This document shows positions 1,710 to 52,400 of a DNA stretch of 64,000 nucleotides, piece after piece. The notes under the pieces were generated by a model. It was not told the DNA's origin. It saw only the letters and a list, made by a program, of their open reading frames with translations, and searched no databases. Each line of letters opens with the position of its first letter. The stretch's first letter is position 1. Position numbers and translations under genes: made by a program. The stretch comes from Marsupella aquatica (lineage: Eukaryota > Plantae > Marchantiophyta). The stretch is from NCBI GenBank assembly GCA_973895155.1, contig OZ316891.1, positions 13,175,037 through 13,239,036 of the forward strand. Reading direction: 5' to 3'.

Positions 1710-1886
1710 TGGAGATCACGCACTCTAGAGAATGATCGAGCATACCTCTGCTAAACTTTCTTGTTTGCGACTGTCTCTTCCTTGTTACCCTCGACAATCG
1801 CAAACCCTTCTCATCATCCTGCCTAGAACTCGATCTGGACATCGAAAGTGGAAGTTGTTGTCACATCGAGATCTGTGGATTTCGCC

Positions 1887-27500: not shown

Positions 27501-27998
27501 CTGAATTGTTGTCACATTTCCTGTAAACACCGCTCCTTCGACCAATGCCTCCGCAGGAACGGTAGGATCCTCTCGTCTGGCCTTTTGGCCAGGAATCCGA
27601 GGCTTGAATCTCTCTGCCTTTGCGGGTGGCGGGGGGGCAGCAGCTGGGACGGACTCTGCATTCTCCTCTGAGCCCTCACTGACGTCTCCAGGCGCCGGAG
27701 TCTGTGTTTCGTCAACGGCAATGCTTCCCTCAACAGCTGCAGTGAACACATGTCTCGATGAACAACTTGCAGTTTCAGGCCCTGAGCATGACCTTCTCCG
27801 CCTTCCAAACACAGAGTCCAAAGGCCGGAACGAAATCGAAGACTTGACAGACGCCTTGTCCATATTTCCATGAGGTACTGCTCGAGTGAGCGCTGACCCT
27901 GAAGAAACTAATCTCTTTGGCTGCCATATTCTCGCAGCGCTGCAGGAAGGACAAAGCGACTGCACTGGCCCCGAAATCAGGAGCGCTGCAGGTGCCAT
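24510..27998 (-). CDS. PETs: Plastid polyprotein of EF-Ts (PSRP-7 S1 domains + two EF-Ts domains), 1162 aa, single coding exon
   Basis: The protein has a Ser/Arg-rich transit-peptide-like N-terminus and two S1 domains ([28 protein letters not shown]; [18 protein letters not shown]). An acidic Glu/Ala linker is followed by two EF-Ts units ([19 protein letters not shown]...EVNCETDFV; [19 protein letters not shown]...EVNCETDFV). This is the architecture of Arabidopsis EMB2726 and Chlamydomonas PETs. Confidence 0.95.
26270..26770 (-). repeat. Coding tandem repeats in the PETs linker: ~120-bp (40-aa) unit x3 plus 30-bp (10-aa) unit x3-4
   Basis: Protein repeats (V)[37 protein letters not shown] and EEVIPEAAA. 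At the DNA level gcagctgcctctgggataacctcttct recurs at a 30-bp period. Confidence 0.85.
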
Positions 27999-30900: not shown

Positions 30901-33253
30901 AGCTCCGGCGTCGCTGACTCCGACGCCGAGCTCCCTTATGGTCCAGGCCCGGATAGGCCATCCGGGGAGGACTTAGCATGGGGAGACTTGTGGGCAATGA
31001 GACGTGGCACTAGCAAGGCAAGGGGCCAAGCTGGGGACACACACTAAGGACTTGAACTAGCCTATGGCTGGTTGGGTCAAGGGGAAATGGGCCGGGCTCA
31101 AGGATGGCCGTCCGGACCGTCCGGACCGTCAGATGGGCTTTGAGTTCTGAGGGCTTGGGAGTGAGCTCCTCTTGGCCCAAGGCCAATGGAGTTGATGCCA
31201 TTGGCAACGGATGCTTGGGGCGCAAGTTGCGGCCCGATCCGGGTTGGGCCAGTCGGGGGCCCCGAGCGGCGATCAGACCTGAGGGCCTAGGCATGAGCAC
31301 TAGGTCGGCCCGGTCACAACCGGCTAAGGCACTCCACTTGGGGATGCCTATCAAGAAAGTTATGGGCGTTGCCAGTTGGTGGCCGCGCCCGTTACGCGCG
31401 ATGGGATCCGGGTTGGGGGCCAAATGTTTAGGGACCAAAGCTGGTCCGGGGGTGGCAGGTCTCCAGAAGCATATATGAGGGGAGTGGTGTCTCCCTGGGG
31501 GCTAAGGGCGAGCCGAAGTCGTGAGCCGCAGCGGTCGCGACACTAAGGGAACCCACCAAACGGAAATGGTGATATCTTCTCAACGGGAAGTTTGTTGGAG
31601 GACTTCTTAGGTGCGTTGGAAAGCTCTTGAGGAGGGCTACGCCCTCCTAAGCTCAGCTGGGTCTGGGGGTGCCATGGGTTCTCGTGGTTTGCGGGTGTTA
31701 GCTCCCCCGCTTGCCAAATCCTGCCAAACAGCAGCCAAGCCGCGTTCAACCTCTCAAGGGAGCTTGCGTTGGGGAGGCAAGGCCAAGTAGGTATGGAGGC
31801 TGAGTCCCAAGGGCGTTCAGTCCCTAGACCATCAGTGGGGCGAACCGGGAGCGGTTGTTAGAGTCGGGGCCATTCTGGTCCCGGCGTGTTGAGACAAGTT
31901 TGGGACAAGCTACGCTATTTGGGCCATGAGCATGTCCTGAGGTCAGGGCGGTCAGTTGGTGATGGATAGGTACGAGGGGGAACCCGGGCCGCGCCCAAGG
32001 AAGGAGTTGTCCTAGACGGACAGTGGGCGTGGGTTCTGGTTCTGGCTTATGGCATCGAGAGGACCTATCGTTGACCTATTTACCAACGTCTGTTGAGCTT
32101 GAGTTAGGATGCTAGACTTGGCCAGTTCTAGATCCGGAGGGGTTACTTACCGAGGTGCTTTGTTGCTTGTGCAGATAGTGAGGACCATTGAGTAGCAGTC
32201 GTGTAGGTGAGCAAGTACGGCTTCGTATGGGAGGGGCCGCAGGTGGTGCTAGAGGCACTTGGATGCTTGCTCGAGGTATTCCGTGGAGGCGTTCGGGCAC
32301 CAAGGGCACTTAGGCGCAAGTGCTGGGATTGGTGAGGGCACTGGGTGGCAAGGTCCACCACTCACTAGTAGAAACCGGGGTGTTTTATGACTAAGTGTTA
32401 CGACTGCCCATGACTCCTTGTGACTAAAGTTTGGGGGGTATCAAGCCAGTCGTAATTTTGACATAGAGTCTTATTTAAAGTGACTGAAATCGATTGGTCA
32501 TTTATGTGACTAGGGTTTAAGACATATTTTGTGACTAATAATGACCACATCCGTACTTGGGCATTTTGGGATTAGGAGAAGGTGTAGTCTTATAAATGAC
32601 TGAAAAGTAGTCATTTGTATGACTCAAAATGAGGTATGAATTAGTCACAAAGAGTCAGTGAGGAAGAGTAGCCTTTCGCATATATGACTGGTGCTATGGT
32701 TCAATATCGGAACACAGGTGACTGATTATGACTACCTGGTCTTAAAAGTTTAGAGTATATGGGCACATTAGTGACCGATGATGACTACAGATGACTAATC
32801 ATTCTTAAAAATCTTAAGATTGGGCTAGACTGGTTGGTCTTATTGGGGACCACTTGATATCTTAATGACCCAAAATGACTCATTAGTCTAGTTCACGATT
32901 GCATTCTTTGACCCTTTTGGTCAAAGATTTTGACCAAAAGGGTGAGGCAATTGCAGCCTGCACATAGTACTAGAACCATGACTAATAGACAACTGAAGCA
33001 TAGAAGCATACATTCAAGCACTCAAGCAAACAAGTACACAAGTCTTACATGAAAACATGAGAGACAACATAGTTCTATTAGAATCTTAGAACTCATATTA
33101 ACTATTGAACACACATGCATAATTTCGTACAAACAAAGTTGTCACAACATGATCAGTGGATGATCCAGTGAATCTCAATTCAACTCTGCATTATGAAATA
33201 TCTCGGTAACATTTGGCACCATGGATGCAGTTGTTTGTAAGTTTAGGCTAAAA

Positions 33254-36200
33254 CTACAAACCACACATTTCAGGTGTCCCTATATATTCTGTTGGCCACA
33301 ACACCAAAGAGTTCAAAGCATCTGCAATAGTTGTCTATGGCGGGTCATCATTCAAATTAGGAACTGGCAAAGGGGTCTTTGGCTTCACAAGCTTTGTCAA
33401 CAACACTACAGAATACCCTGTTGGTACTTCTTTGCAATGGAATGTAATCTGCTCTGGGCGCAATTTTCCATACCCTACACACAACTCATTTTGCTCTGGT
33501 GAGAACAATACATACTCAGGATGTGCCTGAGTCTTCAATTCTGCATCAGCTTTACGCTTCTTTGCCGCTGCCACTCTACCACTTGCCCTGGCCCGACCCT
33601 TCACCTTCCGAATAGGTCTCCCAACAGCTGAAAGCTCTACTTCTACTCCACCGTCTGTGGTCACACCCTGTATGTCACCTGCCTGTGATGGAATTTGGGT
33701 CTCCACCTGGCCCTTTGTTTCGCATCCATTCTCACAGGCTTTGGCAACTTCTATGAACTCTTCATATGGATCCAAACTGGGGGTATTCAGTACATTGGTA
33801 ACCTCTGCAATAACAAAATAGCAAGTCAACACCCTATCAACATTTTTGCCTTATCTCCAATCATGGAAACATATAACAAAACACATTTTTTGTGTCATCT
33901 CCAATCATGGAAACATATGAGAAACCTTACCTTCCATTGTTGGGGCCATGGTACCCTCCACATCCCTTTCTGTGGGCTCCACTTCCATTTGCTGTTCAAT
34001 ATTACCCTCTGGATTCATCAAATTGGAGTAATGTGGCAGGTCTCTAGAGCCTCCATTCCATATTGCATTCATTATACATTTGTATTGGTCTTCTTGCACA
34101 CGAATAAGCTTCTGAACATCTTCCTTTAAAGCAGTCAACTCACTTGCCATTTCACTCAATTTCACAGTCACATCATTCTCATGAGACTCCATACATTTCA
34201 CACAATCTGATAAATTGCTAAGAGAACATGATCCACCTCCCTGCAAACACATATGTCCAACAGAGTCAATCCATTACACCTGAAAAAGAATATATGGTCC
34301 CATTGTTCATGCAAACTATGGAATGTGGAGCGAAAAAAACACTATCTGGTATGAGTACTTACTTGGTTTGAAGGATCACTCTGGCCAGATTTTTGCTTCT
34401 GTTTTCTTGCTTCAGCTCTCACCTCTTCTTTTGTAGGGGACTGTCCATTTTGTGCCTTCTGCATACAGTGTAAATGCACACATTATTTGCTCGAACACAA
34501 AAAAACTCAAATACACTGTAGAAGCTAGGTCTGCCAATCCAACGATTATTCTTACCAGCTGCTCTACTATTGGAGCATTCCCTTTCCTTCCTGTCAAGTT
34601 AAGGTTCTGAACGTTGCCACGTGCATATGCCATCTGGGAACTCTTACTCTTGCCGGATTCACTCAAGAAGTGATGGACTAGCTTGCTCCATTGAAGAGGA
34701 TCTGTCAATGGGGGAGCAGGCATTCTTTGGTCCTCTCCACCTTCTTGAAACAACACGTGCAATCTCCACCTCTCATTCTTCAGAATTGTCTTTGCATGAG
34801 CCTGAAGACACTCCATGGCTACTCCATCCGGATGGCCCACATATTTCCATTTTGCGGCTACATTGTCAACAACTTGTTGCCAATCCGCTGGATGCTGCTG
34901 CACAAAATTCACCACACTCAAATCCAGCCATCGCAATATTTCACCTTTCAAGTCAGCCAACCAATGATTCTTCCCTGCAGATGCACTGTTCACCCAACGG
35001 TTGCTCCCAATCTCCACTACTCCTTTCTTGGTTCTGTCAGGTCCTGCATTGCTTTCTGTGGTACTGCTTGGTGTGACAGGTTTAGGATTCGCTAGAACTT
35101 TTGTACTACCCTTTAGTGGACTTATAATGCCCCCTGCATCATCCCACATCCATGTGACATCATACAATAGTAACATCAATACCTTTGTATATGTCAAATA
35201 GTGGATACCAATTGCAATTGTTTATTGTTTCATAAGTGTAACTTACCAGATGCTTTGGCGACACTCTGTGGATAAGAGGCAGGCTCAACTACCTGTACAT
35301 CTTCCCCACCAGCCAACCAATCAGGCTCTGGCCATTGCTCAGAACCATAGGCTACAGTTGTCTCTTGTCCTGCCTCTACTTCAGGTTCATAGTAAACCTC
35401 CTTGTCAGTTACTCCCCAATCAGGATGGGCAGAATCTGCAGTCACATAATTAAGCACTTTAATTAGGTCTTTAACATCACACTAGCATACCCTTTATTTC
35501 CAAAGTAATTTACATAAATGCCAGAATTGAAGGGCAATCCCTACTCACATCTCCAATCGTCTCTTGTTGCTCCATACTGCTCAGTATGTTGTGTTGGTCT
35601 ACCTTGGCCCCGTGTAATGTGTGCTGGTGGTGGACCCGTAACATACACAACAGTGTGCCCAGCAGGTGGTGGTGGTCCATACCCATCCACTTGTGGGGCT
35701 GCTCTCCCCTGAGAGGGTGCACTGTGTGTTGGTGGTGCTCCATACACCACAGTGTACCCCTCGCTGCGTGGGGTTGCTCTAACCTGACCTGTGCTGTGGG
35801 TATGTGTTGTTGCTCTACTTGCAAAGGAGGGTGGGATGTGCCCACCATGTGGTGCAGCTCCATACACAACAGTGTGACCACCTACACCAACAGTTGTTGT
35901 TCCATACCCACTGCTCTGTTGGGTTTTACCTGGAGGTGGAGGTGGAGGTGGTATGTGCCCAGCACGCCCCACTGGTCCGGACCCACGTGCAATGTAATGC
36001 ACTGTGCTTCGCCCTCCAGATGTTGTTGTACTGTGCCCACGGCCCATACCCCGAGTAGCAAGTCCACCTCTCTTAGCCTGCAAGAACATATGTGCAAGGA
36101 CAATAAACTTAAAAGAAGTATCTTCCTCTGACTTGCCACACTCACATGAGCCAAACATATCACTACTGTGATACACTACTTCAACACTTCATAATTACCA

Positions 36201-36470
36201 CAATTTTCTTGGGCTCCTCGACAGTACGCTTGCCCTGCCCATATTCTTCATCATCTGCATCGGGCTCCTCCTCTGGATAGTACTCTACATCATCAAATTC
36301 CTTATGGTTTTCACCGGACCCAACATCTTGCCCATCATCTGCAGAATCTGCCATCGATGGAATGTCCTTCACTGCTAGTCTCTCACTGCGTCACCGAGGT
36401 CCACTTGCACTGTCACTAATGCTTTGCCTAGCCCTTCTGTGCACTACACTTCTCCTGTCTGGGAGCCTGC
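33254..36470 (-). pseudogene. tnpA-like: TnpA-like (Ptta/En/Spm-type) multi-exon gene with a premature stop at 33335-33337; 5' boundary approximate
   Basis: The exon at about 34556-35140 encodes WSKLVHHFLSESGKSKSSQMAYARGNVQNLNLTGRKG, which is Transposase_24-like. The terminal exon reads FHCKEVPTGYSVVLL...PLPVPNLNDDPP*TTIADALNSLVLWP, a Tnp1-like C-terminal motif that continues past the TAG to a stop at 33254-33256. Upstream exons are acidic and Gly/Pro-rich. Confidence 0.72.
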
Positions 36471-36718
36471 AAGCCATCCAAAAGCAACATCCATTGAACA
36501 ACTCTAGTAAACATAGCTACATTCATTCCAATTAATGAGCAAAGTCTGGATAGGTTCTGTGGATGATAATTGTTCCCTTACAAAGCGGAAAATCCCTGTC
36601 TGAGCTCAGCTCCCAAAGCTGCCAGCCTCTCATCAACATATGCTGCACGTATCATGGCTTGCTTTTCAGACTCACTCATCTCATCATCATCTTCTTCCAT
36701 CCTATTCAATGACAAACA

Positions 36719-39700
36719 TTATTGCATACGCATGGTGTCAGGCTCAGCCTCTACAAATGGCTCCTCACCCTCCCAAGCATCCACCCGTGTTAGAGGAACA
36801 TACTCTGTGCTTGTCTGAACAGTACCAACGTCTCCAGTACGTGGTTGTTCAAATGCACTATGTCTATCTAAATGAAACTCTAGCTTTGAGCCTTCTACCC
36901 TACGATTTCTGGGCTGCTTATGACACACTACCCTCCAACCTAGGTTCTCTTCCACATCCAAGAAGAAGGCCTGCTCCACCTGACTGGGATACACAAAAGG
37001 CTGCTCCCATTCGGGCAACTTGGACTTGAAATTGGCAAGCAGAAAGCCATCCCGGTCTCTTTTCATACTGGCCCTGTTACCACGCCACACTTGTCTTACC
37101 CATTCACCCTTCATCAAAATTACAGGAGTGGATGTGGCTCCATAGTCAAGAAGCCAGATATCACTTAGTTCTCCTACATACCCCATCTGCAACACTCCAC
37201 TACTTTCATCAGGGCTCTCATGCTGAAATACACAAATGAGCCCACAATCATATGTTACCCTGGAAGAAGTTGTTTCATCTCTCACTCTATAGTGATTGCC
37301 ATATGCTGCCATCCGTTTGTAAGACTTTACCAGCAACCGTGGAGGATTGGAGAGGAGATAGACATCTACATCCATATTAGGATGGCTTGCATGATGCTCT
37401 CGAACTGTGCATCTCAGCCATTCTGACATGCATGGGAATGTGGTAGACGTGCTTGATTGAATAGCCTTCTGTGCCTCATACTCCCTACACATATAAGTGC
37501 ATGGATTTAGCAATCAGAGTACACATTCTATACATATCTGCAATTTAGAAACCAAGGGCAGCAAAGAAAATTGAAAACAAGTTACATACAGGGAGACCAA
37601 AGTAGGTACTCACTCCAGCCAGGGTTGCATTGCATCAGTGTTTTCCAGAACGTACTGATGAGCCAAGTCTCTAATTTCGATGGTCAGCTTCACTGTGGTT
37701 GCAGCACCTTGTAGGACTTCCCCAGACACCCCTTCTTCTTCATCAGAATTCCATACTCGCCTTGTCACATGCTCGTAATCTGCTAGGTACTCTGTGATGT
37801 AGCCCAGAGTTTCATCTTTTATATAACCCCGAGCCATACTTGCCTCTGGCCTATAGTAAGATCTCACATGACCCTTCATCAACTTCATGTACCGCTCCAG
37901 GGGGTACAACCAACATGCTGTCACCGGCCCGTACTGGTCTATTTCTTCCACAACATGGATGAGCAGATGAGTCATTACATCAAAGAATGCAGGCGGGAAA
38001 TATATTTCAAGATCACACAACAATAGTGCCACATCTTTCTTCAATTGGGGAAACTGTGCAGCATCCCACACCTTCAGACAAACTCTGCGGAACACATCAC
38101 TCAGACGCAGTATAACTTTACGCACAGGCTCTTGCATGAGGCCCCTCAGGCACAATGGCAGGACTTGTTGCATCATGACATGGTAGTCATGGGTTTTCAT
38201 ACTACCAAATTGGAATTTGTTATCCTTCACATGCCTCTTGAATGCACTAGCATAATCTGTGGGAGCTCGGAGTGAACTCAGCCTTGATAAAAAGGTCTGC
38301 CACTCTGTGTCTGTGCAACAATATGGTGCTTGGTACTTCAAAAACACGTTTGCCCTGCTCTGGTGTGATGTAAGCCAAAGGTGGGGTCGAATTCCCCTGT
38401 CCTGTAGATCCATACGTACAGAGCCCGTGTCCTTTTCTCCACTCAAAAATCGGAGTAGACTCTCGCATATGTTCTTCTCTATGTGCATAACATCAATATT
38501 ATGTTTGTTTGGATCAAACTCCTGCAACTCCGAAACATCAAGCAGTGAGCAAATCTCAATCTTCATAATACATACATACTACTTCATACAATCTAACAAC
38601 TAAATTGACTGAATCACATATATGGGTTGTTGGGGAGAGGAGCTTACTCGCCAATACTCCAGCTGCAAGTCCAAAATGGACTGTCGTTTCACACCATACA
38701 ACCTTGCAGGATCCCGTACTCCATCCTCTGCTCCTCCATCTGCATCATATTGTGCCTTGGCAGCCCCCCAAGAACTTATTTGCTCCTTCTTCACTCGAGG
38801 TGGGGGACTGCGGAGCTCCGTGCGCTTGTTAAAATGTGCTATAAGATTGGGTCTACGTCTGTAAGGGTGATCAGAGGGCAGAAATCGACGGTGACCAAGG
38901 TATTTGATACACTTCAAGGACTTTGAATAGTCACTTGTCACATGGGGGCCACATCTTGTGCAAGCTAAATATCCTTTCCCAACCTGGCCTGCAATCATGC
39001 TATGGGCAGGGTAATCTGCAATAGTCAACATTACAATAGCTCTAAGCAAGAATGGATTGGCTTCACCAATCCTCTGCAGCATATCATATGTGAGCACTCC
39101 AGTGTACCATAGCTTTCTCAGTTCCTCTACTAGAGGAGCGAGATACACATCTATATTGGCTGCAACAGCACTGTCTGGCCCTGGAATCAACAATGCCAAC
39201 ATTACAAAGAACCGCTTTGTAGTCAACCATGGGGGAAGGTTGTAATTCAAAAGGGTTACAGGCCAACAATAGTACGCATTGTTCTTCTCGCCAAATGGGT
39301 TCACCCCATCCAATGATAGCCCAAGCCTAACATTCCTTCTCTCCCTAGCAAACTCAGGATACGCATCATCAATCAACTTCCATTGCTTTGAATCTCCAGC
39401 ATGGCGTTGTAGCCCATCTCGACTTTTGTTCTTAGCTGTCCATGTCATCAACTCTGATATGGCACGGCTCCTGAACATTCTCTGCAGTCTGGGAATTATA
39501 GGAAAGTGACGGAGCACTTTTGTAGGTTGCTTGGACTTCCCATTATTCCGGTACCTGTGCTTCCCACATGTAGGGCATGTCAACTTCTTCTCATGTTCGT
39601 TTCTGAAAAGAACATGCCCATCAGGACAGACATGGATTGACTCATAGTTCAGCCCAAGTTTTGATATCAGTCTCTTTGCCTCGTACATGTTTTTTGGCAC

Positions 39701-40465
39701 TAGATTACCTCCTGGCATCACTGTTTTCTACAAGAAGGCCAGAACCTCGGACACAAAGATGTTTGGCACATTGTGGTTCCCACAAATATTCAGAAACATT
39801 AGCACAAATGCTAATTTGGAACAATTGCTTCCTGGGAACAGCGGATTGAAGGCCTCTTGAACTTCGGTTGGGGAGCCAAACATGGTGTCCACTCCAGCTG
39901 CAGCCTGTTGCCCAATCTCGAACTCATCTAAAGACTCGTGGTCATCACCCGGTGCAGTCTCAAACTCTTCTGCATCTTCCATGTCCTCCCGCATTGCATC
40001 CATGTCCTGGAAAATATCATGCACCATTTGCTGAACATTGATCCCTTCGTCTGCAGGCTGCTGAAGGACTTCGGACCCACCCAGTTGAGTCATCACATCT
40101 GCCAACCCACCAGTGAAGAACTGGTCTCGCCTTGCACTATTTGCATTCTCAAAGTCAGCCCTCCATTCCTCATCCGAAGAATCAGCCTCATTCGGATCGT
40201 TTGTAACACGCCAACGAGGGTGTCTCCCATGAATTGCCAAGTGCCCATGAATCTGCCTCAAGACTCTGGTATGGGAGCCATTGCATTGAGTGCAAGGACA
40301 TCTCATTCGTGAACTTGGACCTGACCGTGCCACTTTGGCCTGTTCCCGATTCCAGAGCTTCTGGTCGTGTTGGGAAACCCTCATTGGATGATGTAGAGGC
40401 AACCTGGCAGATGTTGGATGGGTCCAAGGGGGAGGGTGACCTATGGACACTCTTCTAGACTCCAT
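36719..40465 (-). pseudogene. tnpD: CACTA TnpD DDE transposase (Transposase_21, DUF4218, DUF4216) with an in-frame TAG at 39728-39730; exons ~38648-40465, ~37614-38521, ~36719-37484
   Basis: Motifs in order: RCPCTQC..H, IHVCPDGHVLF..CPTCG, LSLDGVNPF, YNLPPW, IADYPAHSMIAG, DVMHIEKN, FPPAFFDVMTHLLIH, WLYPLERYMKLMK..RPEASMARGY, YVGELSDIWLLDY, EQPFVYPSQVEQAFF. ORFs 39728-40465 and 38600-39721 are in the same frame, separated by TTG-TAG-AAA. Confidence 0.93.
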
Positions 40466-40930
40466 CTTAGAGTTCAGAACACAGGCACTCAGATTTAATT
40501 GTCATTTCATTATGAAAGTGGAAAATACATTTCTTGTATAGCTGTGTTCCGATGTTCACACAATCTACCAAAACATATGACATGATACAGTGTAATAAAT
40601 CATGCATAGACTTTCTACAACCACCAAAAAACAAACAAGAAAGGTTCCTGAATTGTGTACCTATTCTCAGGTTACACTGTAACAAAATTCCTAACTGTCT
40701 CAGGGTGTCACCTCCTTCGCTGTCCTCACTTATACTGCCTCAGTCTGCAATGGCCAACCAAGCACGTACATCCATGACCATATCAGAGTCCAATCACCTA
40801 TAGTCATAGACAAACGTGCTTGGCGTGAGAGCAGTATGAGATCTCCTCACGTTATTACCAGAGTTCATCTGGATACCCACCCTGTTCTCGATGGTAGTCA
40901 CACCTGAGGTACACTGGCATGTACATCAGG

Positions 40931-41461
40931 TCATATATCAAGGAGTATGCCCTGGGCATACCAGGGTGGGGTTCGATCTATGCCTACAAGAAGTGGTTGT
41001 AATGCCCTCCACTGAGGGGAGCTAGCTACCAAGTCCCTCCATTGTGTGCTAATTAGTCTATATTTGCAAATGTCTTGTGCGTTTGACCACATAAGAATTC
41101 TGGGCCACACATCCGACAGCATTATATCATCTGGCAAACCAGGCAACAAGGAAGTCCCCACAACATTATGCTCTTCTATTTCATCTGCTGAAAAATAAGA
41201 TTCATCGTCTCTTGCATCCTCAGGCGGTGCCAAAATATGTTTCAACACCAACCCATGCAGGAGAGTCCAAACAGTGGCCAACCATGTGGCAACCCACAAG
41301 AGGAGCCTACATAGCGTCGGGTGATGTAGGAAAGGCAACATACCCACCAAAGTCTGCCGCCAAGATTTGAGCCCACCCCCAGTAAGTTTACAGTGACACC
41401 CCCAGGCAGCAGGAAACAACAATCCGCCAATAGTAAAATAAGTCCAACTGCGACCAACCAT
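40931..41461 (-). CDS. CACTA cargo: F-box-motif protein with a hydrophobic N-terminus (176 aa)
   Basis: SLLPGLPDDIMLSDVWPRI...ICKYRLISTQWRDLVASS matches the plant F-box consensus (LPGLPDD...RxVSxxWRxL). It is preceded by a hydrophobic segment and an acidic stretch. ATG at 41461, open frame. Confidence 0.62.
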   Translation of the reverse strand: MVGRSWTYFTIGGLLFPAAWGCHCKLTGGGLKSWRQTLVGMLPFLHHPTLCRLLLWVATWLATVWTLLHGLVLKHILAPPEDARDDESYFSADEIEEHNVVGTSLLPGLPDDIMLSDVWPRILMWSNAQDICKYRLISTQWRDLVASSPQWRALQPLLVGIDRTPPWYAQGILLDI

Positions 41462-41552
41462 AACAAGCTACGTTAGTTCAAATATCACATTTATTTAAAA
41501 GATGTGATTTGTACAAAAAGCTTGTCTCAAAACTGATGCTACTACGTACTCC

Positions 41553-42425
41553 TCACTCTGATTCAGAATCGCTAATAACCCCTTCCTCACTTGTTGTCAC
41601 ATAGTTTTCACTGTGAGGATCCTGACCCTTCCGTGGCCAGGCCTCAAAAAGATCATAGTCCATTGGGTTTTGACGCTTCCCAGCTGCTACTGATTCCACA
41701 AGCCAAGCATATGAAACCACAAACACATTATGGGACATGACATAAAAGCGAATGTCACCCTTCCCAAACTTGCGGCAGGCTTTGGGATATGACTTAGTAA
41801 TGACATGAGTGGTGTCCTCTGTTATATTCTCCTCCACTATCCCACCTAGGTCAAGCACTGTGGACTTGTACACTTTGCACTTAACCTCTCCAATTCCCGC
41901 CTCCACAAAAACCATGCTCAGCCCTTTCAAAATGGGGGTTGGTTGCTTCATCTCCTCAGCCAACATACTCTTCAGCCTTCTTGAGCTTTGTCCTGTGTTG
42001 AGTACAGGTCCATATTGGACATCAGCAAGCCGTGCCTTTACTTCCCAGACTTCTTGTTCAGCCCAAGCTGATGCAGTAGCTTCTTCATCCTCCCACAATT
42101 CATATTGCTCAGTATCCTGTACAATCTGATGTGCTATGGAATCTGTGATCCAAGAGGCCTCAACTACTTTTAGGCCTCGCTCAGTAATTGCAGAATTCAT
42201 GTAGGACCATGACCACTTCTTTATCACTGATAGCCATGTCCCTGCAACAACATGTGTAGTCTCTGGAGTGATGTCCTGAAGTACAGTGCCATGGAGCTCA
42301 GAGAATCGTTTCTGTACAGTTGGCCAATGCACTTTGGTCAACCCATGCTGGCCATGGACCAAAATGGCTCTGACCCCTGTAAACACTGCTGGGTGGTCAA
42401 ACTTCCTACGTTTCCCAGGCTCCAT
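41553..42425 (-). CDS. CACTA cargo: tandem BRCT-domain protein (~290 aa)
   Basis: Two repeats carry BRCT hallmarks: VFTGV...HGTV...ETTHVVA...VVEASWITDSI...Y and ILKGL...LGGIV...DTTHVIT...VVSYAWLVESV...Y. There is an NLS-like KRRK at the N-terminus and an acidic Ser-rich C-terminus. First ATG at 42425. Confidence 0.82.
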   Translation of the reverse strand: MEPGKRRKFDHPAVFTGVRAILVHGQHGLTKVHWPTVQKRFSELHGTVLQDITPETTHVVAGTWLSVIKKWSWSYMNSAITERGLKVVEASWITDSIAHQIVQDTEQYELWEDEEATASAWAEQEVWEVKARLADVQYGPVLNTGQSSRRLKSMLAEEMKQPTPILKGLSMVFVEAGIGEVKCKVYKSTVLDLGGIVEENITEDTTHVITKSYPKACRKFGKGDIRFYVMSHNVFVVSYAWLVESVAAGKRQNPMDYDLFEAWPRKGQDPHSENYVTTSEEGVISDSESE

Positions 42426-43009
42426 GTACACACACCCTATGTGATGAGAGTGAATATTGGAAGAATGGGTTCACCTGCCAATAGAAGGACACCAAAATTC
42501 CTGCTTTTTAAGTTGATCCGGTCCACTGTTGCTCAAGTCCAATTTTGATAGGTACAGGGGATATGTGAACAATAAGTACTAGACCTACACCGATGTAGGA
42601 CATTGTTTGAGTATATACTAGGAAATCCATATCAAAGGTGAAATGAAGTGCAACCAACTTGTCATGGCCGCACATACATATTTTTTTGTAAAGGAGGATA
42701 CATTCAATGACAAACTTATAGGGCAATTTGATTAATTGCATGCCTGATGCTTACAACTTTGAAGTCCTGTTTTAATTTAGCAGTCTGATGAGAGTGTTTG
42801 TGAAAATGACCACTCAGTCTAAATACTTCCAAGAAGGCTTGTAAGGATAAGTTTTTATAGGCATGTACCCAGCCAATAACGCCAGGGCACAGGATAAGTG
42901 CTCCCTGTATAAACTCGCCTACCCAAGTCCTGTTCAAAATTGGAATCTCTGCAATCTCCAAAAATAGTACATCCACATTAGGTGCCCTATGCATGTACAA
43001 TGTTCAGCT

Positions 43010-43690
43010 TCACAGCCAAGATATGTGATCTCTCACAGGAGTGCGCGAGGTAGGATCAATGGCATGGCGATGACAATAAAATATCCATCGATCAACACCA
43101 TGTGCAGAGTGATCATAGATTTCCCTGTCACAAGCATAACCCTGTGCTTGACAATCTTTCAAGCAATGATAGTGCCACATAGTGGGACACCTAGCACAGT
43201 GGACTATGTCAGCCCAGTACTCATCATCATGCTCACAACATGCCTTGCACCTATGAAGTGGGCAAGCTATGGCATGAGCAGGCAAACACTCAAAACATAA
43301 AAACCTTACACAAAAACGGTCTGGACATTTCCTAACATTCGGTGCAGCATCAACAGAGCCCTCATAGGACCCCAACTTCCCACACTGTGCACACTTAGCC
43401 TGCTTCTCCAAACAATCAGTGCACATCCAGTCTCCCTGGTGTGTTGACGGGAGGCCCACCCCTGGACAGTTGTTTTCTGCAGCAAGGTCAGACTCCGGGT
43501 TGAGGTGGAAATGCCTCATGCAAGGGCCCTCACAGATGACCAAGCTCCCACCATCGTCACAAATGGCACAACAATGAGCTGCCTTCTGGAAAATCTGACT
43601 TGCAGAGAAGTTAGTAACATGTGGCCCAGGTACACCTGTGTTGCTCACCTCTATCACATGCTTTTTCGCTGGAATTTTGGGGCGTGCCAT
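43010..43690 (-). CDS. CACTA cargo: EDM2-type atypical PHD-finger protein (226 aa) with an H3-tail-like N-terminus
   Basis: CAICDDGGSLVICEGPCMRHFH...WMCTDC...CAQCGKLGS...ACPLHRCKAC...CARCPTMWHYHCL...IFYCHRHAIDPTSRTPVRDHI follows the Cys/His spacing and TPVRDH ending of the EDM2/NSD-type PHD array, as recalled. The first ATG (43690) follows a pyrimidine-rich tag| acceptor. Confidence 0.85.
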   Translation of the reverse strand: MARPKIPAKKHVIEVSNTGVPGPHVTNFSASQIFQKAAHCCAICDDGGSLVICEGPCMRHFHLNPESDLAAENNCPGVGLPSTHQGDWMCTDCLEKQAKCAQCGKLGSYEGSVDAAPNVRKCPDRFCVRFLCFECLPAHAIACPLHRCKACCEHDDEYWADIVHCARCPTMWHYHCLKDCQAQGYACDREIYDHSAHGVDRWIFYCHRHAIDPTSRTPVRDHISWL

Positions 43691-44441
43691 ACCTACGCAT
43701 GAGACAGACAGTACAATTAAGTAGACGGTACAGGCAATACATTTTGGCAGACTGTACAGACAATGTATTTTAGCAGACTTCACAGAAAGTAAAATTTAGC
43801 ATTTAAGGTACAAAGGCATTAACTACTGCAATGAATTGCAATGCCCACACAAGGATGCAGAGCAAACATACTTTTGGTTTGTTGAGCCCACACACAAAAC
43901 TGAACCCCTAGTACAATTGCTCCACCAACACCTCAAATTCGTGGATGTGATTCACCAAAAAAGATCTCCAACAACATTTCATGCATTTGAATCACATACA
44001 ATAGTCATCACATGAAAAATAGGCATTTTTCCAACAAGATTGGGATCAAGCAGTGTGATGAGGGTTGTACTTTATACATCCTATATAGGCTATGATAGTG
44101 AGACAAATAAGTCATACGTGTAAGGGAAGGGATGTTTGCAGGTTATCGCATGGCCCATTAATTCTGTCATAGAATGTTACAATGTTGGCCAAGTTAAAGT
44201 AGACATTAAAGCAGTCTTTGAATGGAGAATTTAAAGAGAGCTTGCCTAATTCTTACATTAGAATATTCCACTTAGTGCAGCCAAAATAGGATAAGTTATA
44301 TACTCTGGACCCTAAACACTTTACCCAAAATTGCTCATACTTCAAAATTTTAAATTAATATCCTCGGTGCTTAAGTCAGAGCATTAAGTGTGAGGTCATT
44401 CCACTCTGGTCTGTGCATACGGGGTGACAAACTGTGCTCCT

Positions 44442-45194
44442 CTACAGCGTGTGATCCAAACATGTGTAGACACCAAAAGCACCAGCCCTGGGGAATCACT
44501 TAGAGTAAAACCCCTAAAACACGTGAGAACAAACCAATGAAATTTGAAAAATAAATTAAAAAATAAATTCAATTAAAATTACCCTTGTACCCTTAATTAT
44601 ATGGCTTTGACACATTTTTAAATACCTTACTGAATATAAAAACTAATATTTTTTCCAAAATTGGATTTTTAAACGCCTTTACTACAAATTTTTGATTATA
44701 ATTATTATGCCAACAAGATTAAAAAGAACCTTCATTTGTTCGCACCCCGTTCTAATAATCCAACGAGTGATTCCCCAGGGAGCACCAGTGGTGGGGTCTG
44801 GGAGGCCAGGACAAGTGACATCGCCAGGCACACTGCAAGATGGTGAGTGGTTCCAGATGATACATTGTGCTCTATGCAAAAATCGACATCCAAGAGAACG
44901 GTCATCCAACTCTGGCCAAGATGCCCGACAGGCAGGACAGTCATATTGGCAACTGTGTACACACCCTTGGGCCCTAATTTGTGGCGGGTCATGTACGAGA
45001 GACAAAAATACCAAGGATGTTGTGAAGGGTGGAGAAGTAGGTACAGGCTGGCTGTAGTTATTCTTGGCAACAACAGGGTACTCAAAGTACCATGCAGACT
45101 GGGCAGGAAGGATCCCAAGTCTGACATACTCAAGGCGCAACCTCTCTGCCTTGCGTGCAAGCCACACATGTTCAGCATTGTGGGTGCTCACCAT
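44442..45194 (-). pseudogene. Possible fourth CACTA cargo ORF, Cys/His-rich, interrupted by the MITE
   Basis: The ORF from ATG 45194 has clustered Cys/His (GCVHSCQYDCPAC...GCRFLHRAQC..WNHSPSC...TC). Removing the MITE and one TSD continues the frame as ...TTGAFGVYTCLDHTL*. No family recognised. Confidence 0.4.
44486..44780. mobile_element. 295-bp MITE with 15-bp TIRs and an 8-bp TSD, nested in the CACTA
   Basis: TIRs CCCTGGGGAATCACT (44486-44500) and AGTGATTCCCCAGGG (44766-44780). TSD AGCACCAG at 44478-44485 and 44781-44788. The interior is AT-rich. Confidence 0.9.
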
Positions 45195-48100
45195 AACTGT
45201 TGCTTTTGTTCAGATGTCTTGTGTTCACGTCCTCCAACGTCCTTCGATCAGCAAGGTCAGTAGGAGCTATAATTGCCTCTCCAACAACAACCAGAAGAGA
45301 GACTAATCAGTTCCCACTCACTGTGTCATTCCCTTGGTTCCAACTAGAGGTCATAGTATAAACATAGCATGAAACACTCCTAATGAACAATGTTGCAAAC
45401 TACAATATCCAGAAAGACTGAAAATCTCACCCTGCAGTGAGCAGCAGAGAGGTAGTTCACTGCTTGCAAGAGTGAACTGAGCAGGAGTGTAGGCAAACTG
45501 GCATTCAGTTGGCACAACTATATTGTGCATCAGCACAAAAGCTCTTATAAACATGATATGCATGAAACTCGTCGATAAAATAGAAGGAAACTAAAGAGTG
45601 GATGCAAAACAAAGTAAATTACAGCACAGGTTGGCACAGGAAGTGGCCCGCAGCACTCAGTCAAACTTCATAACCAAAGTACAGACTGTGTTCACAATAA
45701 GGAGCTTCCTAAAAAAGAGGCCACCAAAAGGGGGTCGCAGAAAGGTCACTTGACAAAATGAAGATGGGAATGAAAAAACTGCCTCCAAGCTCAATACATG
45801 TGACCAAATATATATTCAAAGAGGATCCCCAACAGAGCAGAAGACAGTATGATCCCAATTACTATGTTCTATCCATAACTACATGATCTGAAAAATGTTA
45901 TGAGCAGACACGAAGAAGCCAGCAAAACAGAGGAAACAGAGCAAAACAGAGCATGGATCGAGAAAATGAACAACATCTAGTTCTTACGCAAGAAACTCAA
46001 TGACAGCAAACAAATTCACTAGCCCCAGGAAGTGAAAAGCAAATGAGTACCAAGCCAACCAACTAAGACTGACTATGAAATGCAATGAAACCTGAGTGAA
46101 ACAATTGTTCACACATGCACGGGACATTGGAGGTTGAATACAACAGTCACCGCCAAGAATGTATGCATGAAACAGACATGAAGATATCGAATATGTATAT
46201 GCATTCCAGACTTTCATGCCAGACAGTGGCGAAAGTTAAAATGAACTAGTTTTAACTTTATGACTCTCAGAATGAAAATATTTTATTTCAGAATTATATT
46301 CTATTTCAGAATTGGTTCAACTCTGTGGATTGTGAACTGTCCCACTTGGAATTCAACTATTTGGGCTATCTAAGAATGCAGTTCAAAGGACATATAGTGC
46401 AAGACAGTTAGAGATCATGTCTTCATTCCGACGTCCAATTGGACATTTTATGTCACAAACTGCGCAAGCAATGAAGTCCATGGAATTCTCTCAAAAATGC
46501 AGCTTTTGTTGTTGGTAAAAGCAACTACGAGTTTCCTATTGAGTGCCCCCGACGCACAATACTACCAGAGGCCCACTTTAGACTGCGATGGCTATCATTA
46601 CTTATTGGGAACTCGGATGCATATATATTGAAATGCTTCGCAGAGTGTTTCGACCACAAAAAACCTAACATCAATCTCAACATTCAGTCCCGTCTCAGAA
46701 TTGATTTAGAGGAGGCTTAGCATTCAGTACAGTGTCAACAATCAGTCTTGTCTTCACATTCAACATCCGATTGCAAGGGGCTTCGATGAAAGCACAAGAT
46801 AGAGCTATACAAGAAGAGATAGAGGAAGGCACCTGTGTGTTCGGAGAAAATATGAAGCTCCAAAGACCACCCTAAACTCTCCAAGATGTAGGGTCGATGT
46901 AGGTTGCAGGTAGAAGCTCACAAGCCAAATATTGGGCAAATGTGGGCTCCAACTATACTGTAGTGTGTCGTGGCTTTGCTCTTGCCTCCTATAGCTTAGA
47001 ATGGGCCGGGGTTACCAAACAACTGTTATTCTATTGAAATTGGCTACCGAGAACTCTTGTCTTTCTGCACTCAAACAACACCAAAATGAAGTCTTAGTAC
47101 CAGTGAGACCAAGAACACAAAAGGAAGGGGCACATTCAAAGACAAAGTGATTCATACCACATTCAAAGACAAAGCGGAAAGAATTGGAAAAACCAGAGTG
47201 AAAGAATTGCGAATGAATATCTGTTCACACTGTATGCACAGGATCTTACATTTAGGGTGACTCTATTTGCAAAAGCCATAAAACAGAGAAACAGAGAAAC
47301 AGAGACCAGAAAACAGAGAAACAAATTAAGCATGCATCGCTAAAACGTAAAAACTTCATAGTGTATCATTTCTCTAAACAAAGGGCCACATACTCTGGTC
47401 TCTACAGAGAAAGCAAATCCACCTACGATGAGAAGATTGGTACAGAACAGGAGAGAAAAGGGAGACCAGAACAAATATTTAAAATCAGAACAAGAAGACT
47501 GGCAATTTAAGGAACCCCAGGGAGCCTATTGCATTTGAATCACATACAGGACCCTAGCATACTCATAGTGGGGCACTAGATACTGGGCAAACTCAAGGTA
47601 ATGGTCAGAATGAAACCAGAAAGGTCTTGAAGTTGCCAGGTCCCGCCTCGTTCCTCTCGCACTTTGCAGAAAACAAGATGCAAAAAACTAACCTATAGCT
47701 CCAACCGGCTGTAGTTGACTGAGCTGCAGCAAGTTGTGAAGACAGGTCGTCCCCAGCGGCACCTTGTCCCTGCCTTTAGCTCGTCCTTCACCGCAAGTCT
47801 TTGAGCTGCTCAACAAACACAGCAGCTCAGCACCACAACTAATAGATGGCTAAATAATGGGATCATGTGCAAAGGGAAATGAGCCATGAAGCGAAGGGAA
47901 GCGATCAGTTCCGGCACCCAACAGCTGAAATGACCTCACTGACAGTTGGCATCTATGCAGATAGATCGAGGTCTTGTCACTAAGTTAGACACAATTTATG
48001 GTGTGAGTGTGAGTGTGAGTGTGAGTGTGAGGTTCTAGAGAAGGCTAAAGGACCTCTGCAATGCAAAATGTGGTGCGAATGGAGCCGCGAGGTGAACAAT

Positions 48101-48852
48101 AAGTTGGTGATAAAACCGGGCAGCATACATAACACCAGACCAAAGACGCAAATGACCAAACCGAAAGACGCTTTCACCAACAATGCATATTCAGGACATG
48201 AGTGAATGGAAAGAAGCAAGAGAGATACAAGGATTACAAAAAAAGACTAGGCCCTCGTCTGTCCAGACTTCTGTAGGACTCCACTAACTCCATTGTCCTT
48301 CTCAGATCCCCAAGAAGTCCATGAAGCAACGAAGAACCTGGGCAATGTGACTTAAGGACAGTAGCAACAGTACATACACATAATAATGAAAGGCTGGTTT
48401 GGGGCAGCACAAGCAAGCAATGCGACCCCCTTTCACTCACCGTCCCACGACCAATGATAACGGATGAAAAACTGAACCTGAAATGTAGGTCGCGCGTTCG
48501 ACCTGAAAGTGGTCAGCTCCAAGGCTACCTACCTACCCCTTCGTTGCTCCGCAGCTGAGCTCAATGAAGTATAGAAAGTGGGTGAGGATCCCGTCCTAGT
48601 TCAGCTCCTGTGCCCTCATGGCATTTGAAACAAAAAGAGCCAAAACCAATGCAGAACCTCAGTAGGATGAACGACTCCCCGACAGAGACTAACTGTCCCT
48701 TCTCTCTGGCAGCTCACAAATCCACAATTGCAATGGTTCTGCTCAGTCAGCCAAGAACACCCTAAAATCTATGAAAACAACGGGCGACAGAGGAGTTTGT
48801 AAGTGATTCTCACTTGAAATTCCGCCAGCTGAATCTTCCTTTTTAGAAGGTC

Positions 48853-49420
48853 TGCTAACTCCGCAGAATGACTCTCGGATGATTAGAGCAATGTAAGTGG
48901 CAGAGCTCACTCCCTCTGAATGTCTCTACTCATCGAAGAGTAGAGCTCCTCCCACCTTCGACCTCCCCAACTCCCCAAAGGTCAGTGGCATATGCGCAGT
49001 CACCTCCTTCGCACACCGCAATTGACCGAGAATCCCTCCTCCTAAAGCGCACAATGTTATGCCCAAGTGCGATCAGGTGGCAGAGTCGACAACAAATTGA
49101 GAAAGAGTAACTCGGGAGCGAAGTGATTCAGAGCAGGTGGCTCTTGCTAACTCCGCAGAATGACTAGTAGATGATTAGGGCAGCGTAAGGGCAGAGCTCA
49201 CTCCATCTGAATGTCTCTACTCATCATCGAGTAAAGCTTGTCCCACCTTCGACCTCCCCAACTCCCCAAAGGTCAGTGGCATCTGCGCAAACGAAGCGGG
49301 AGCACACCGCAATCGGTTCAATTCCCTCCTCCGAAAGCGCAAAATGTGATGCCCGAGCACGATCAGGTGGCAGAATCAACAGCAGCGAAGTCTTCGAGCA
49401 GGTGGCTCTTGCTTTTCCCT
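48853..49420. repeat. ~293-bp diverged tandem duplication in the CACTA 5' non-coding region
   Basis: tgctaactccgcagaatgact...cccaccttcgacctccccaactccccaaaggtcagtggca...gatcaggtggcaga occurs at about 48853 and about 49146. Confidence 0.85.
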
Positions 49421-52400
49421 CGCAAAAACTAGCAGTCGACACTAAACTGCACACCAGCAGTCACTCCTTGGATCCCTTCCCGTTGATCGGCATTTTTACC
49501 CTAACAAAAGTTCACACATGTTAGACGTCACTTAACACTTAGCACAAAACGGTCAGTAAGACCTAGTAAGTGTGCATGAGATTTTGTTTGTGGCCCTTTT
49601 AGTTTGGTGATTTGGGTATTGGTTATAAAAACACCCAATGTCACCGGGAGTAAGACAACACCCACCCTTATACAAGAATGCCTAAATTTGATTAAACCTT
49701 ACAATACCCATTTGATCACAATTAATTAAATAATGAGACCACATATTTAGCGAGCAGGCCTAGGTAGCATAGGGTACTTTAGGGCCGGGCCCTCCATTGT
49801 GTGGCTGTTTGGCCTATAGGGTATAGGCCAGGAATACAGATCGACAGGTCGGAGTTTAGCTCCGGCCCAATTGTTCACTTCAAGGTTTAATTAGTTAATT
49901 AGGTCGGGCCCGGGTTACACCGTACGTCCATACCGTGCACCATAATATGTGTTGGCTATATAGTAACCGAACTCATCCTTATCCTTATTACAACCCTAAA
50001 CATACTAATAGGGATAAAAGAAGGTAAGTATGACCCCAAATTATGCCAAATCCAAATGGTAACATGACACATATTAGGTGCACAATATGTAATGGTCAGT
50101 TTAGTGACTAAAATGGCTTGCCTTCCTTCCCGCCCTTCCTAATTGGTCATAGGAATAAGACAGCGACCAAAAAGTGAACAGTTGTATATGTTTTGGAGTC
50201 TTATGTTGACTTAAGAATGACTCAGAAGTCGTATATAGTCACATAAATATGACTGAAGTGTGGGCTGCGCACAATGGTGGTCAAGCCTGTCATAAGTGGT
50301 CGGGTCACAAAACACCCCGGTTTCTACTAGTGACTGTAATTCACAAACAATCAATCAAAAATGGTAGAAACACGATTTCTCCTGGAATGTGTAAGCGAAA
50401 ACCATCAAAAAACTCAATTCCTCCACATTCAACCTTCCGTTTGATAAACCAAAAAGATCATCTCAATCAGATCAGTCTCCTCTATCTTTCAAGCATTCTC
50501 TTTTGTACAAGCACACACCAAGACCACTGGGAGTCTCAAACCCATTGTTACCCCCAGGTTGCAGAAATTTGATTTTACTTCATCACACACACATTCCTTG
50601 GATGAACATGGGGGTCCACGGATTAATTATTAAGTTCCAAACTAAGTATATAACTCAATAGAAAAGAGAGTCAATTTATTTCAATGCTTTTTAAGCTAAA
50701 TTTAAAGCTGCAATGCACCAAATCTGTACTTTGCCATCAAAGTCTACCCTTCATAACCTACTCCCTAGCAGAGTGAAGCCATAGGTAAACAAACTGATAA
50801 CAGAAAATTTGATATTTAGACTATGCTTGCATGGGGAGTCTGGGTATAAGGGGGCCTTCCTATGCATACGGGTGGGTCTTATCAAAGTGCTTTTGTGTTC
50901 GCCTTCTCTTGGAGCAAATCTCTTCCCTCCAAAAAGGACCATGTTGATTATAGCTCTCCAGTGCCTGAAAAGTTGTTGCTTGTCATTGTTCTCATGAAAT
51001 AGTGCTAGTGCCAGTCTCAAGAAAGAAAAGCTATATAGGATTGGTAGCTTAGAAGTCTTCACATGTGCTTGCAAACACTTATTGTTGCTACAAAGACAGA
51101 GTAGGAAAATTAACAACGGGCTCTTGAAACAAACAATTTGTGTTCAAAATGTACTTTGACTAGTTCAATTATCTTTAATCTTGATTGAGAGTCATTAGAT
51201 CTAAGAAAAATTCTCTTACTAGTCATCACATCTGAGAAAGTTTTTGTAGTTATCAATAGATTTGTGGTTCCAAACCTAGCCCAAACTTAGATTAGATATA
51301 GTCTGTTGGTGGTGAGGAGATCTCAATCTTTCACAATCACCACAAGACAGTGATGATATAGTGTCCAATTGAGTTCTTTGGTGAGGATGCTCATGACTGT
51401 GTAAGTATGAATAGCTTGACAGAGTAAGAGTGATCATGGTTCTCCAACAGAAGAGTCTACTTAGAAGGGTACTAAGCAAATCAATAACTATAAGGCCATG
51501 GAATTGAAGCTTGTAAGTACTCTTTACAGAGCCACCAACATTGGTTGCTGCTGATCTCTTGTTGAATTGTCATGGTAAAAATGGAAAGATTTGAGCATTA
51601 TGCCACCTAAGCATGACTCACGGTTTTGAGAGTTTGTAATGTATCTAAAGTTTGAAAAATGGGTATGAGTTTCTAGAGACCATGATTGAATGTCAAGTGT
51701 CAATATCTGATTGGCTCGACTAACTACCATAACTTGCATTACAAATGCTGAAATTATTTAACAATAATCAAAGATTTCCATAAAAGTAGTCCAACCTATA
51801 TTTCAGTTGGGTTCAGCAAAATGATGGATCAAATGTGAGCTGGAGATGGAATAAAAAATGCATGACATATATTTTTACGTCAAATAGGTCAATCGTTTAC
51901 AGTGAAGATAGATAATATTCATAGTTTCTTTATTAATAGCATATGAATATTTCTATTAGACTAGGATTGCACCAAATATCCTAAAATGTACACTAAGTTA
52001 ATTTGCCAAGGCCATGGATTGCTCAGTCTCTTCCACTAGATCGACTTGAATAGACCACTCTCACTACCGCTACCATTCCTCTTGTCATCTTGCTATCTCA
52101 GTGAATTCATGGAAGTTGACTCCGCTACATTTGTATGGGGAGGTTCTTCTAAATCAAAGTCAGTAGTACAATTATCCCACTTCACTACAAAAGGATAAGC
52201 CTTTAGTGTTAATTAAAGAATAATGTCATTTATTGGGAGAGTGAGTGTTAGAGGTGGTGTTTGATCTCTGGCCCTTGTTGTGGTCTTATCCATTATTTAT
52301 ATGCATGATCGGGTGCATGACTGGCAACTTGTTATTTCTGCTAATTAAAGAGCACAAGCAATGTCCTCACAAGGCTTTCTAGGTTCATGTGCAGTTTGAA

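Follow-up and report, generated by a model that had tools for sequence, protein, structure and literature searches.

A stand-alone EDM2/NSD-type PHD array encoded as its own gene within a CACTA element of the liverwort Marsupella aquatica

A full-length CACTA (En/Spm) element in the stretch of Marsupella aquatica DNA analysed here (64,000 nucleotides, henceforth the window) encodes an intact EDM2/NSD-type PHD array as a gene of its own. Sequence comparison places this gene in an old, conserved family, with a transposon context seen for the window copy and its close relatives. It was likely captured long ago from an EDM2 paralogue of the host that had no methyltransferase-like domain to begin with. 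The conserved capture of the array is solid, and its function, as read from sequence, may be that of a small chromatin reader acting on the element itself.

The open reading frame (ORF) lies on the minus strand at 43010..43690, with its ATG at 43690 and a TGA at 43012-43010, and is intronless. It encodes 226 residues, with the array at residues 41-222. The N-terminus opens with a basic MARPK and continues into an FSxxQ motif, 40 residues precede the first Cys, and the C-terminus reads TPVRDHISWL. A first-pass annotation had quoted a Cys/His motif followed directly by a stop; the motif is present, but three residues (SWL) intervene before the stop codon. In Pfam the product matches PHD-1st_NSD (E 9e-6; 26.1 bits, below the cut-off of 27) and PHDvar_NSD (E 0.033), an Atlas look-up returned NSD-type PHD clusters (0.92), and Rfam gave 0 matches. 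From 1.84 billion proteins, a profile built on six family members retrieved 552 at E<=0.001. Among the best 150 of these 552, long EDM2-like proteins dominate after the short relatives, and the named matches include Marchantia Mp2g00350 and a Selaginella 'ENHANCED DOWNY MILDEW 2'. A 90-sequence profile matched NSD2/NSD3 with E values of 3e-30 to 3e-27. The array had first been assigned to the EDM2 type, and this identification holds: its relatives by profile and tree are EDM2/NSD proteins rather than unrelated PHD proteins, and the family falls inside a streptophyte clade supported at 94/97. The initial reading that no methyltransferase-like domain follows was also correct, as the stop lies right behind the array, the same is seen in relatives, and no methyltransferase-like ORF was found downstream, the next ORF encoding tandem BRCT domains.

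The element spans 17,970 bp on the minus strand (32363..50332), with its genes running from right to left. Its left border (32360..32391) consists of the target site duplication (TSD) ACT (32360-32362) and a terminal inverted repeat (TIR) beginning CACTA, and its right border (50304..50335) of a TIR ending TAGTG and the TSD ACT (50333-50335). The TIRs are complementary at 28 of 29 bases (E 1e-6). Exons of a TnpD-type transposase (36719..40465, minus strand) match Transposase_21 (E 3e-66), DUF4218 (E 1e-25), DUF4216 and Transpos_assoc. The 18-kb transposon proposed earlier is thereby recovered with CACTA/TAGTG TIRs, a 3-bp TSD and TnpD domains. Since TnpD carries an in-frame TAG (39728-39730), the window copy is probably non-autonomous. 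Read from right to left, the order is 5' region, ORF-Z, PHD ORF, tandem BRCT, F-box, TnpD exons and further ORFs, all on the minus strand. The likely 5' control region (48440..49384) contains two 240-bp repeats, is the least CpG-depleted part and offers a strong splice donor candidate at 48440. ORF-Z (44781..45194) is Cys/His-rich, has no Pfam match and is split here by a nested 295-bp MITE (44486..44780) with perfect 15-bp inverted ends and an 8-bp TSD. This MITE is absent from many other copies, and joints that skip it occur in runs X1 and X3. The BRCT ORF (41553..42425; 290 residues from the first Met) matches Pfam BRCT over two stretches (E 8e-13) and yielded only generic BRCT leads, under 0.9, in the Atlas look-up. 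The next ORF (40931..41461) contains an F-box (Pfam E 1e-4, above the cut-off). Downstream of TnpD, Gly/Pro-rich ORFs (33335..36188) without a Pfam match are putatively TnpA-like by position only. The observed/expected CpG ratio is 0.36 inside the element versus 0.72 and 0.52 in its flanks, a depletion that fits germline methylation.

Conservation of the PHD gene is evident from its stand-alone relatives. Five of these, of 217-245 residues, are 81, 74, 53, 38 and 38% identical to the window protein; four stop at the same residue and one eight residues further on, and P0006, P0008, P0155 and P0156 likewise stop within a few residues of the window protein's end. The family (about 220 residues, 37-81% identical) has common start and stop sites and is monophyletic (99/100 with 11 rows; 100/100 with 8 rows in the mixture-model tree) on a long branch. 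At the 26 Cys/His columns conserved across 28 host arrays the window protein keeps 25, the exception being A98 (His or Gln in hosts). Among nine relatives mean Cys/His retention is 0.94, against an identity to the window protein of 0.46 at 166 other columns. It had been asked at the outset whether the ORF might be a recent neutral copy of a host EDM2 exon. This was checked and is ruled out as far as the 28 host arrays compared go, because the window protein is only 30-38% identical to them and its frame, start and stop are conserved.

Six database relatives (P0011, P0013, P0045, P0136, P0140 and P0145) lose the frame part-way and so resemble decayed repeat copies. No indel reaches a share of >=40% in the PHD ORF in four runs, and in organism D the ORF maps in patches only. 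At the DNA level the evidence for conservation is weaker. The differences listed (40 of 68) include 38 in the ORF, with 14 synonymous versus 9.3 expected (p 0.06). Array differences that vary between other copies are synonymous in 9 of 19 cases against 24.5% expected (p 0.025, post hoc split), and those specific to the window copy in 3 of 9. The last figure looks neutral, as it would if the gene were a passenger or a domesticated host gene, either conserved for the host or riding neutrally in a recently amplified element, and annotated stand-alone host arrays do exist (Marchantia Mp4g03050, 280 residues; Eleusine, 386 residues). However, neutral riding cannot preserve start, stop and ligands across 38% identity, and the many divergent or decayed copies are unlike a host gene, which makes this reading decidedly unlikely. 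Look-ups of the eight clusters P0001-P0008 returned no NCBI or UniRef records, a search for "longer" homologues yielded 154 candidates and 0 significant ones (weak evidence), and no family relatives were found among viral contigs and prokaryote genomes. One metagenome scan gave 11 loci, comprising three unrelated PHD proteins and eight EDM2-like plant sequences (one full-length, the others PHD-only or partial), none of the 11 belonging to this family.

Structure prediction suggests that the product likely folds as linked zinc fingers, forming a zinc-bound reader. AlphaFold2 with 90 sequences gave a pLDDT of 89.1 and a pTM of 0.83, with high values from about residue 30 onwards, superseding a run with six sequences (pLDDT 49.8). 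Foldseek searches with the predicted fold returned PHD-type matches only, each spanning just part of the array (best TM by query 0.28), and a predicted complex of residues 2-33 on residues 34-226 scored 0.02.

Where did the array come from? Bryophyte hosts contain EDM2 paralogues without the ELP domain, including Marchantia Mp1g03210 and Mp4g03050, Riccia R1sor_003797, two Calypogeia pairs and moss proteins; Calypogeia CAM6087769 ends 4 residues past the array. The best trees place the family as sister to the liverwort ELP-less paralogues with support of 69/90 and, under the mixture model, 87/67, neither being starred. Near-duplicates, five misparsed rows, P0146, P0152 and P0009 were left out of the trees, and the mixture-model tree omits 17 rows. 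AU tests rejected an origin among five angiosperm-clade rows (0.0006), and did not reject grouping with liverwort EDM2 proper (0.134, 0.117) or with Calypogeia CAM6087769 alone (0.257). In a comparison that does not depend on the trees, the 16 residues before the first Cys were scored in 138 proteins, and the motif FSxAEVN, first spotted by eye, proved common to the family and two Calypogeia proteins only; this pair scored 10.6-10.8 against a mean of -8.5 (sd 4.2), with 0 of 5000 shuffles. Because the likely donor paralogues end at or soon after the array, the absence of the methyltransferase-like domain was probably inherited. The description of the protein as truncated by methyltransferase loss therefore needs revision: the liverwort and moss ELP-less paralogues are the likelier donor, and the transposon form probably lost an N-terminal part instead.

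Stand-alone arrays also occur elsewhere in the trees. A separate clade of PHD-only EDM2 paralogues (L002-L007, P0032, P0034, P0039, P0043, P0051, P0055 and P0067), with one named member from the grass Eleusine, is nested among angiosperm-type EDM2s, and several of its members have a MARxK start and a short end with a GW[LI]xD motif. With this second clade, stand-alone arrays would have arisen at least twice. The moss (Ceratodon, Sphagnum) EDM2-like proteins P0046, P0105 and P0170, of 528-624 residues and without an ELP domain, form a clade of their own.

Several features of host EDM2s are lost or altered in the window protein. It has neither an N-terminal RFD-like region, for which host P0052 gives a match and host P0016 a weak one, nor the acidic tract: net charge over the 20 residues before finger 1 is +0.2 in 18 family rows versus -9.2 in 71 ELP-bearing hosts. 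The acidic tract is likewise absent from the liverwort ELP-less paralogues, where the same stretch has a charge of -3 to +4. Within finger 2, 7 residues stand where Calypogeia and an angiosperm-type EDM2 have 26-27, so that about 20 are gone. In 10 of 10 family rows a Cys takes the place of the finger 2 His ligand, and Ala98 stands where a His/Gln is conserved.

How might the gene be expressed? A candidate 3' splice site (43692..43725, minus strand), with a pyrimidine tract and a branch-like CTTAAT, ends two bases ahead of the PHD ATG. With all 1245 AG sites scored ad hoc, it reaches the 99th percentile, and in the transposase region the same score singles out probable starts of exons. The acceptor candidate of the BRCT ORF at 42436 is in the 97th percentile, and those of ORF-Z, F-box and TnpD are in the 37-73rd. 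A Gly precedes the Met in the divergent relatives P0003 and P0011 too. This pattern suggests that the PHD and BRCT ORFs could serve as alternative terminal exons off a 5' leader; the available text of a recent preprint describes an alternative-exon layout from a 5' leader for TnpA/TnpD of Spm (bioRxiv 10.64898/2026.08.24.746577). Fusion of the PHD and BRCT ORFs by splicing was considered and is disfavoured, as the relatives keep both start and stop and inspection shows the obvious donor and acceptor sites to be out of phase. Parts of the stretch were present in seven public runs from four organisms, none recorded as RNA.

This layout bears on the function first proposed, in which the PHD protein would recruit or titrate the ASI1-AIPP1 (AAE) complex, so that polymerase passes the proximal poly(A) sites of the cargo and reaches the transposase. 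The background given for EDM2 agrees with the literature, as far as the accessible text goes (PMC9910501, PMC10852260, PMC10241880, PMC9292364, PMC7529245), and three of these papers (PMC10241880, PMC9910501, PMC10852260) describe AAE as suppressing poly(A) sites that lie proximally within heterochromatic transposons. The anticipated multi-ORF arrangement in which read-through would matter is also present: TnpD is preceded by four ORFs, each ending in a stop of its own and two having strong acceptor candidates, and the element is CpG-depleted. However, the likely donor is not EDM2 proper, and the protein differs from the EDM2s in its lack of the acidic tract (+0.2 vs -9.2), in the missing finger 2 residues (about 20) and in the change of His to Cys/Ala at two conserved columns. 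In addition, the portion of a Marchantia study available to us reports low, uniform marks in a repeat cluster enriched for DNA transposons, and H3K27me3 on half of transposons (bioRxiv 10.1101/827881), so that the chromatin of transposons in Marchantia is unlike that in Arabidopsis. The full-text search brought up no paper on AAE function in liverworts. Sequence comparison gave no link to AIPP1 or ASI1, and recruitment of the AAE complex, while possible, is unlikely and not supported as stated.

We also compared the abundance of different parts of the element. Summed contig depth over the BRCT-PHD-ORF-Z cassette (40900-45400) is 8-41x that of the transposase side and 26-67x that of the 5' side in 4/4 runs, where summed depth is not to be equated with copy number; ORF-Z falls in the element's bin of greatest summed depth, again in 4/4 runs. 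Run X2 has contigs within one depth class (about 1,500-2,000) that resemble the cassette throughout, at about 86-96%, and the transposase in patches only. Together, the depth pattern and the run X2 contigs offer hints that a more abundant CACTA family with different ends may share the cassette. A separate nested element around the cassette was sought and not retained: its borders show no notable pair of TIR and TSD, only two weak 10-bp pairs.

The gene could alternatively provide a targeting subunit: bound to the transposase, the reader would direct insertion to chosen chromatin, or would do so for excision repair together with the BRCT protein. There is precedent in RAG2, whose PHD steers RAG1, and separate PHD and tandem-BRCT genes adjoin TnpD. 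At least three host genes share the region with the window copy, which lies some 4.3 kb upstream of a housekeeping gene, but a single insertion site is uninformative about bias. Moreover, the cassette occurs in more copies, or more similar ones, than the window transposase, which fits a transposase-independent role better, and we regard a targeting role as quite unlikely. Among the neighbouring features are a BES1/BZR1 transcription factor gene (1827-4614, plus strand), an EPF-family peptide exon (17746-18048, minus strand) and a chloroplast EF-Ts polyprotein (24510-28085, minus strand), which is one open frame with a linker of 126-bp and 30-bp repeats. Among the 120 rows listed, identity to the EF-Ts polyprotein reaches 85% for two Calypogeia proteins, lies at 73-77% for those of Marchantia/Riccia and is <=71% for other named rows, which points to a leafy liverwort as the likely host. 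The CACTA element is inserted into or beside a GC-rich repeat (31000-32362; up to 61%) of very high contig depth, and a Harbinger-type transposase fragment with Plant_tran and DDE_Tnp_4 matches lies at 56974-57351 (plus strand).

What could such an array read? PHD structures with acids in finger 1 and no Trp before the His ligand fit reading of the H3 A1-R2 tip and not of K4me3, and in AIRE an acid two residues ahead of the first Cys reads unmodified K4. By comparison with AIRE, finger 1 of the window protein retains two acids, D46 and E54, and lacks a Trp ahead of its His ligand, a pattern consistent with A1-R2 tip reading rather than K4me3. Specificity, and binding itself, are uncertain, and histone binding may be lost because AIRE's acid two residues before the first Cys corresponds to His39 here.

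The N-terminus also resembles H3, since MARPK satisfies the mimic pattern M-[small]-R-x-K. In the available text of the study defining it, 48 of about 21,000 human proteins show this pattern (PMC8166343). Of the 19 family rows whose start is visible, 10 carry it, as do 3 of 156 other proteins from the array search (all in the PHD-only clade containing Eleusine) and 0 of 119 EF-Ts proteins. These counts would be expected if the A-R-x-K start baited host H3 readers or writers, or locked the protein's own finger 1. Yet a subfamily of six rows lacks the A-R-x-K start, the basic start equally fits a nuclear signal, the true N-terminus is predicted only, and M-A-R also begins many long host EDM2s and may be inherited. 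We consider histone mimicry to have a slim chance, the least of the readings discussed. As an observation in its own right, the H3-tip-like M-A-R start occurs in 18 of 156 array-search proteins versus 1 of 119 EF-Ts proteins (near-duplicates included), and the long host EDM2s with this start, from liverworts, Selaginella and a Mesen1 record, include P0012, P0014-P0016, P0018, P0022 and P0088.

The reading that we prefer is that the gene is a selected accessory gene of the CACTA element, derived from a host EDM2 paralogue and encoding a small zinc-bound chromatin reader. It would be expressed as a terminal exon spliced from the 5' leader and would reach the nucleus via its basic N-terminus, where it would bind the N-terminal tail of H3 or the partners with which EDM2-family proteins of the host associate. 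As it has no catalytic or DNA-binding domain, its only means of action would be to cover a surface on a histone or partner. On the chromatin of the element itself it would be a decoy or adaptor, either shielding nucleosomes from host readers or recruiting read-through factors, and the element would benefit by staying transcribable; we put this at somewhat short of an even chance. Spm elements are indeed transcribed despite retained H3K9me, according to the accessible part of the same preprint (bioRxiv 10.64898/2026.08.24.746577). An effect could run in either direction, because EDM2 raises COPIA4 transcripts yet represses some transposons such as Mu1, as described in the available text of PMC3632883. 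A bolder version, which we hold to be rather unlikely, is that CACTA elements of liverworts carry an exchangeable cassette (Cys-rich, small reader, tandem BRCT, F-box) that moves between CACTA lineages. In it the small reader would be both a transposon histone reader and an A-R-x-K mimic, hijacking or jamming the host EDM2 pathway so that full-length transposase mRNA is made despite methylation.

If the decoy or adaptor reading is true, a host-derived reader module kept as its own gene would be a different counter-silencing route that acts on the reading of marks, in contrast to the known plant factors VANC and TnpA, which bind DNA. With 226 residues and a well-folding prediction, the protein, together with the tractable Marchantia, offers a system for asking what EDM2-type PHD arrays bind, whether AAE works in liverworts and how methylated DNA transposons reach full-length transcripts. 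The results also point to an unstudied lineage of methyltransferase-less EDM2 paralogues in bryophytes and to an M-A-R start common to many EDM2 proteins of early-branching plants.

Accessory genes in transposons and capture by Pack-CACTA elements have both been described before. A full-text literature search covering few subscription journals and no repeat databases brought up no paper that describes a transposon with an EDM2/NSD-type PHD gene. The term "PHD" is absent from the main text of an Arabidopsis transposon-product atlas (PMC13547354), from the accessible main text of a 2026 gene-capture review (PMC13317346) and from that of the Spm preprint comparing 962 Spm-encoded structures, whose figures or supplements may list such domains. 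The closest proteins are Arabidopsis EDM2/ELP1, Mp2g00350 and Selaginella EDM2, which are like the window protein in their atypical PHD array, 25 of 26 Cys/His columns and a C-terminal TPxRDH. They are 30-36% identical to the window protein, which lacks their RFD-like region, acidic tract, ELP domain and Pro-rich tail, has a finger 2 shorter by about 20 residues, and is intronless and transposon-borne. In EDM2, the ELP domain is C-terminal and resembles an N6-adenine methyltransferase, as outlined in the available text of PMC7529245. The liverwort ELP-less paralogues (Mp1g03210, Mp4g03050, R1sor_003797 and CAM6087769/CAM6107985; 34-37% identity) end at the array or shortly past it and lack the acidic tract like the window protein, and CAM6087769 has FSxAEVN in common with the family. 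Unlike the window protein, these paralogues retain the finger 2 insert and His ligand and, except for Mp4g03050, a long N-terminal part.

The PHD1-3 cassette and PHD-C5HCH tandem of NSD1/2/3 are comparable too: the profile matches NSD2 at E 3e-30, and fold matches include NSD PHD5-C5HCH (TM by target about 0.6) and PZP domains. In contrast to NSD proteins, the window protein has no SET or PWWP domain, and no solved structure spans the whole array. Extra DNA-transposon genes that act, or are thought to act, on host chromatin control include VANC of VANDAL elements, TnpA of Spm, Ulp1, PMD and TET/JBP. As far as the available sources describe them, VANC and the transposase-derived TnpA bind DNA motifs, whereas the window protein has a host-derived histone-reader fold without a DNA-binding or catalytic domain. 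Pack-CACTA captures likewise place host sequence within CACTA elements, in the accessible text of PMC13317346. In comparison with these, the window ORF is old, intact, conserved and independently translatable rather than a recent fragment.
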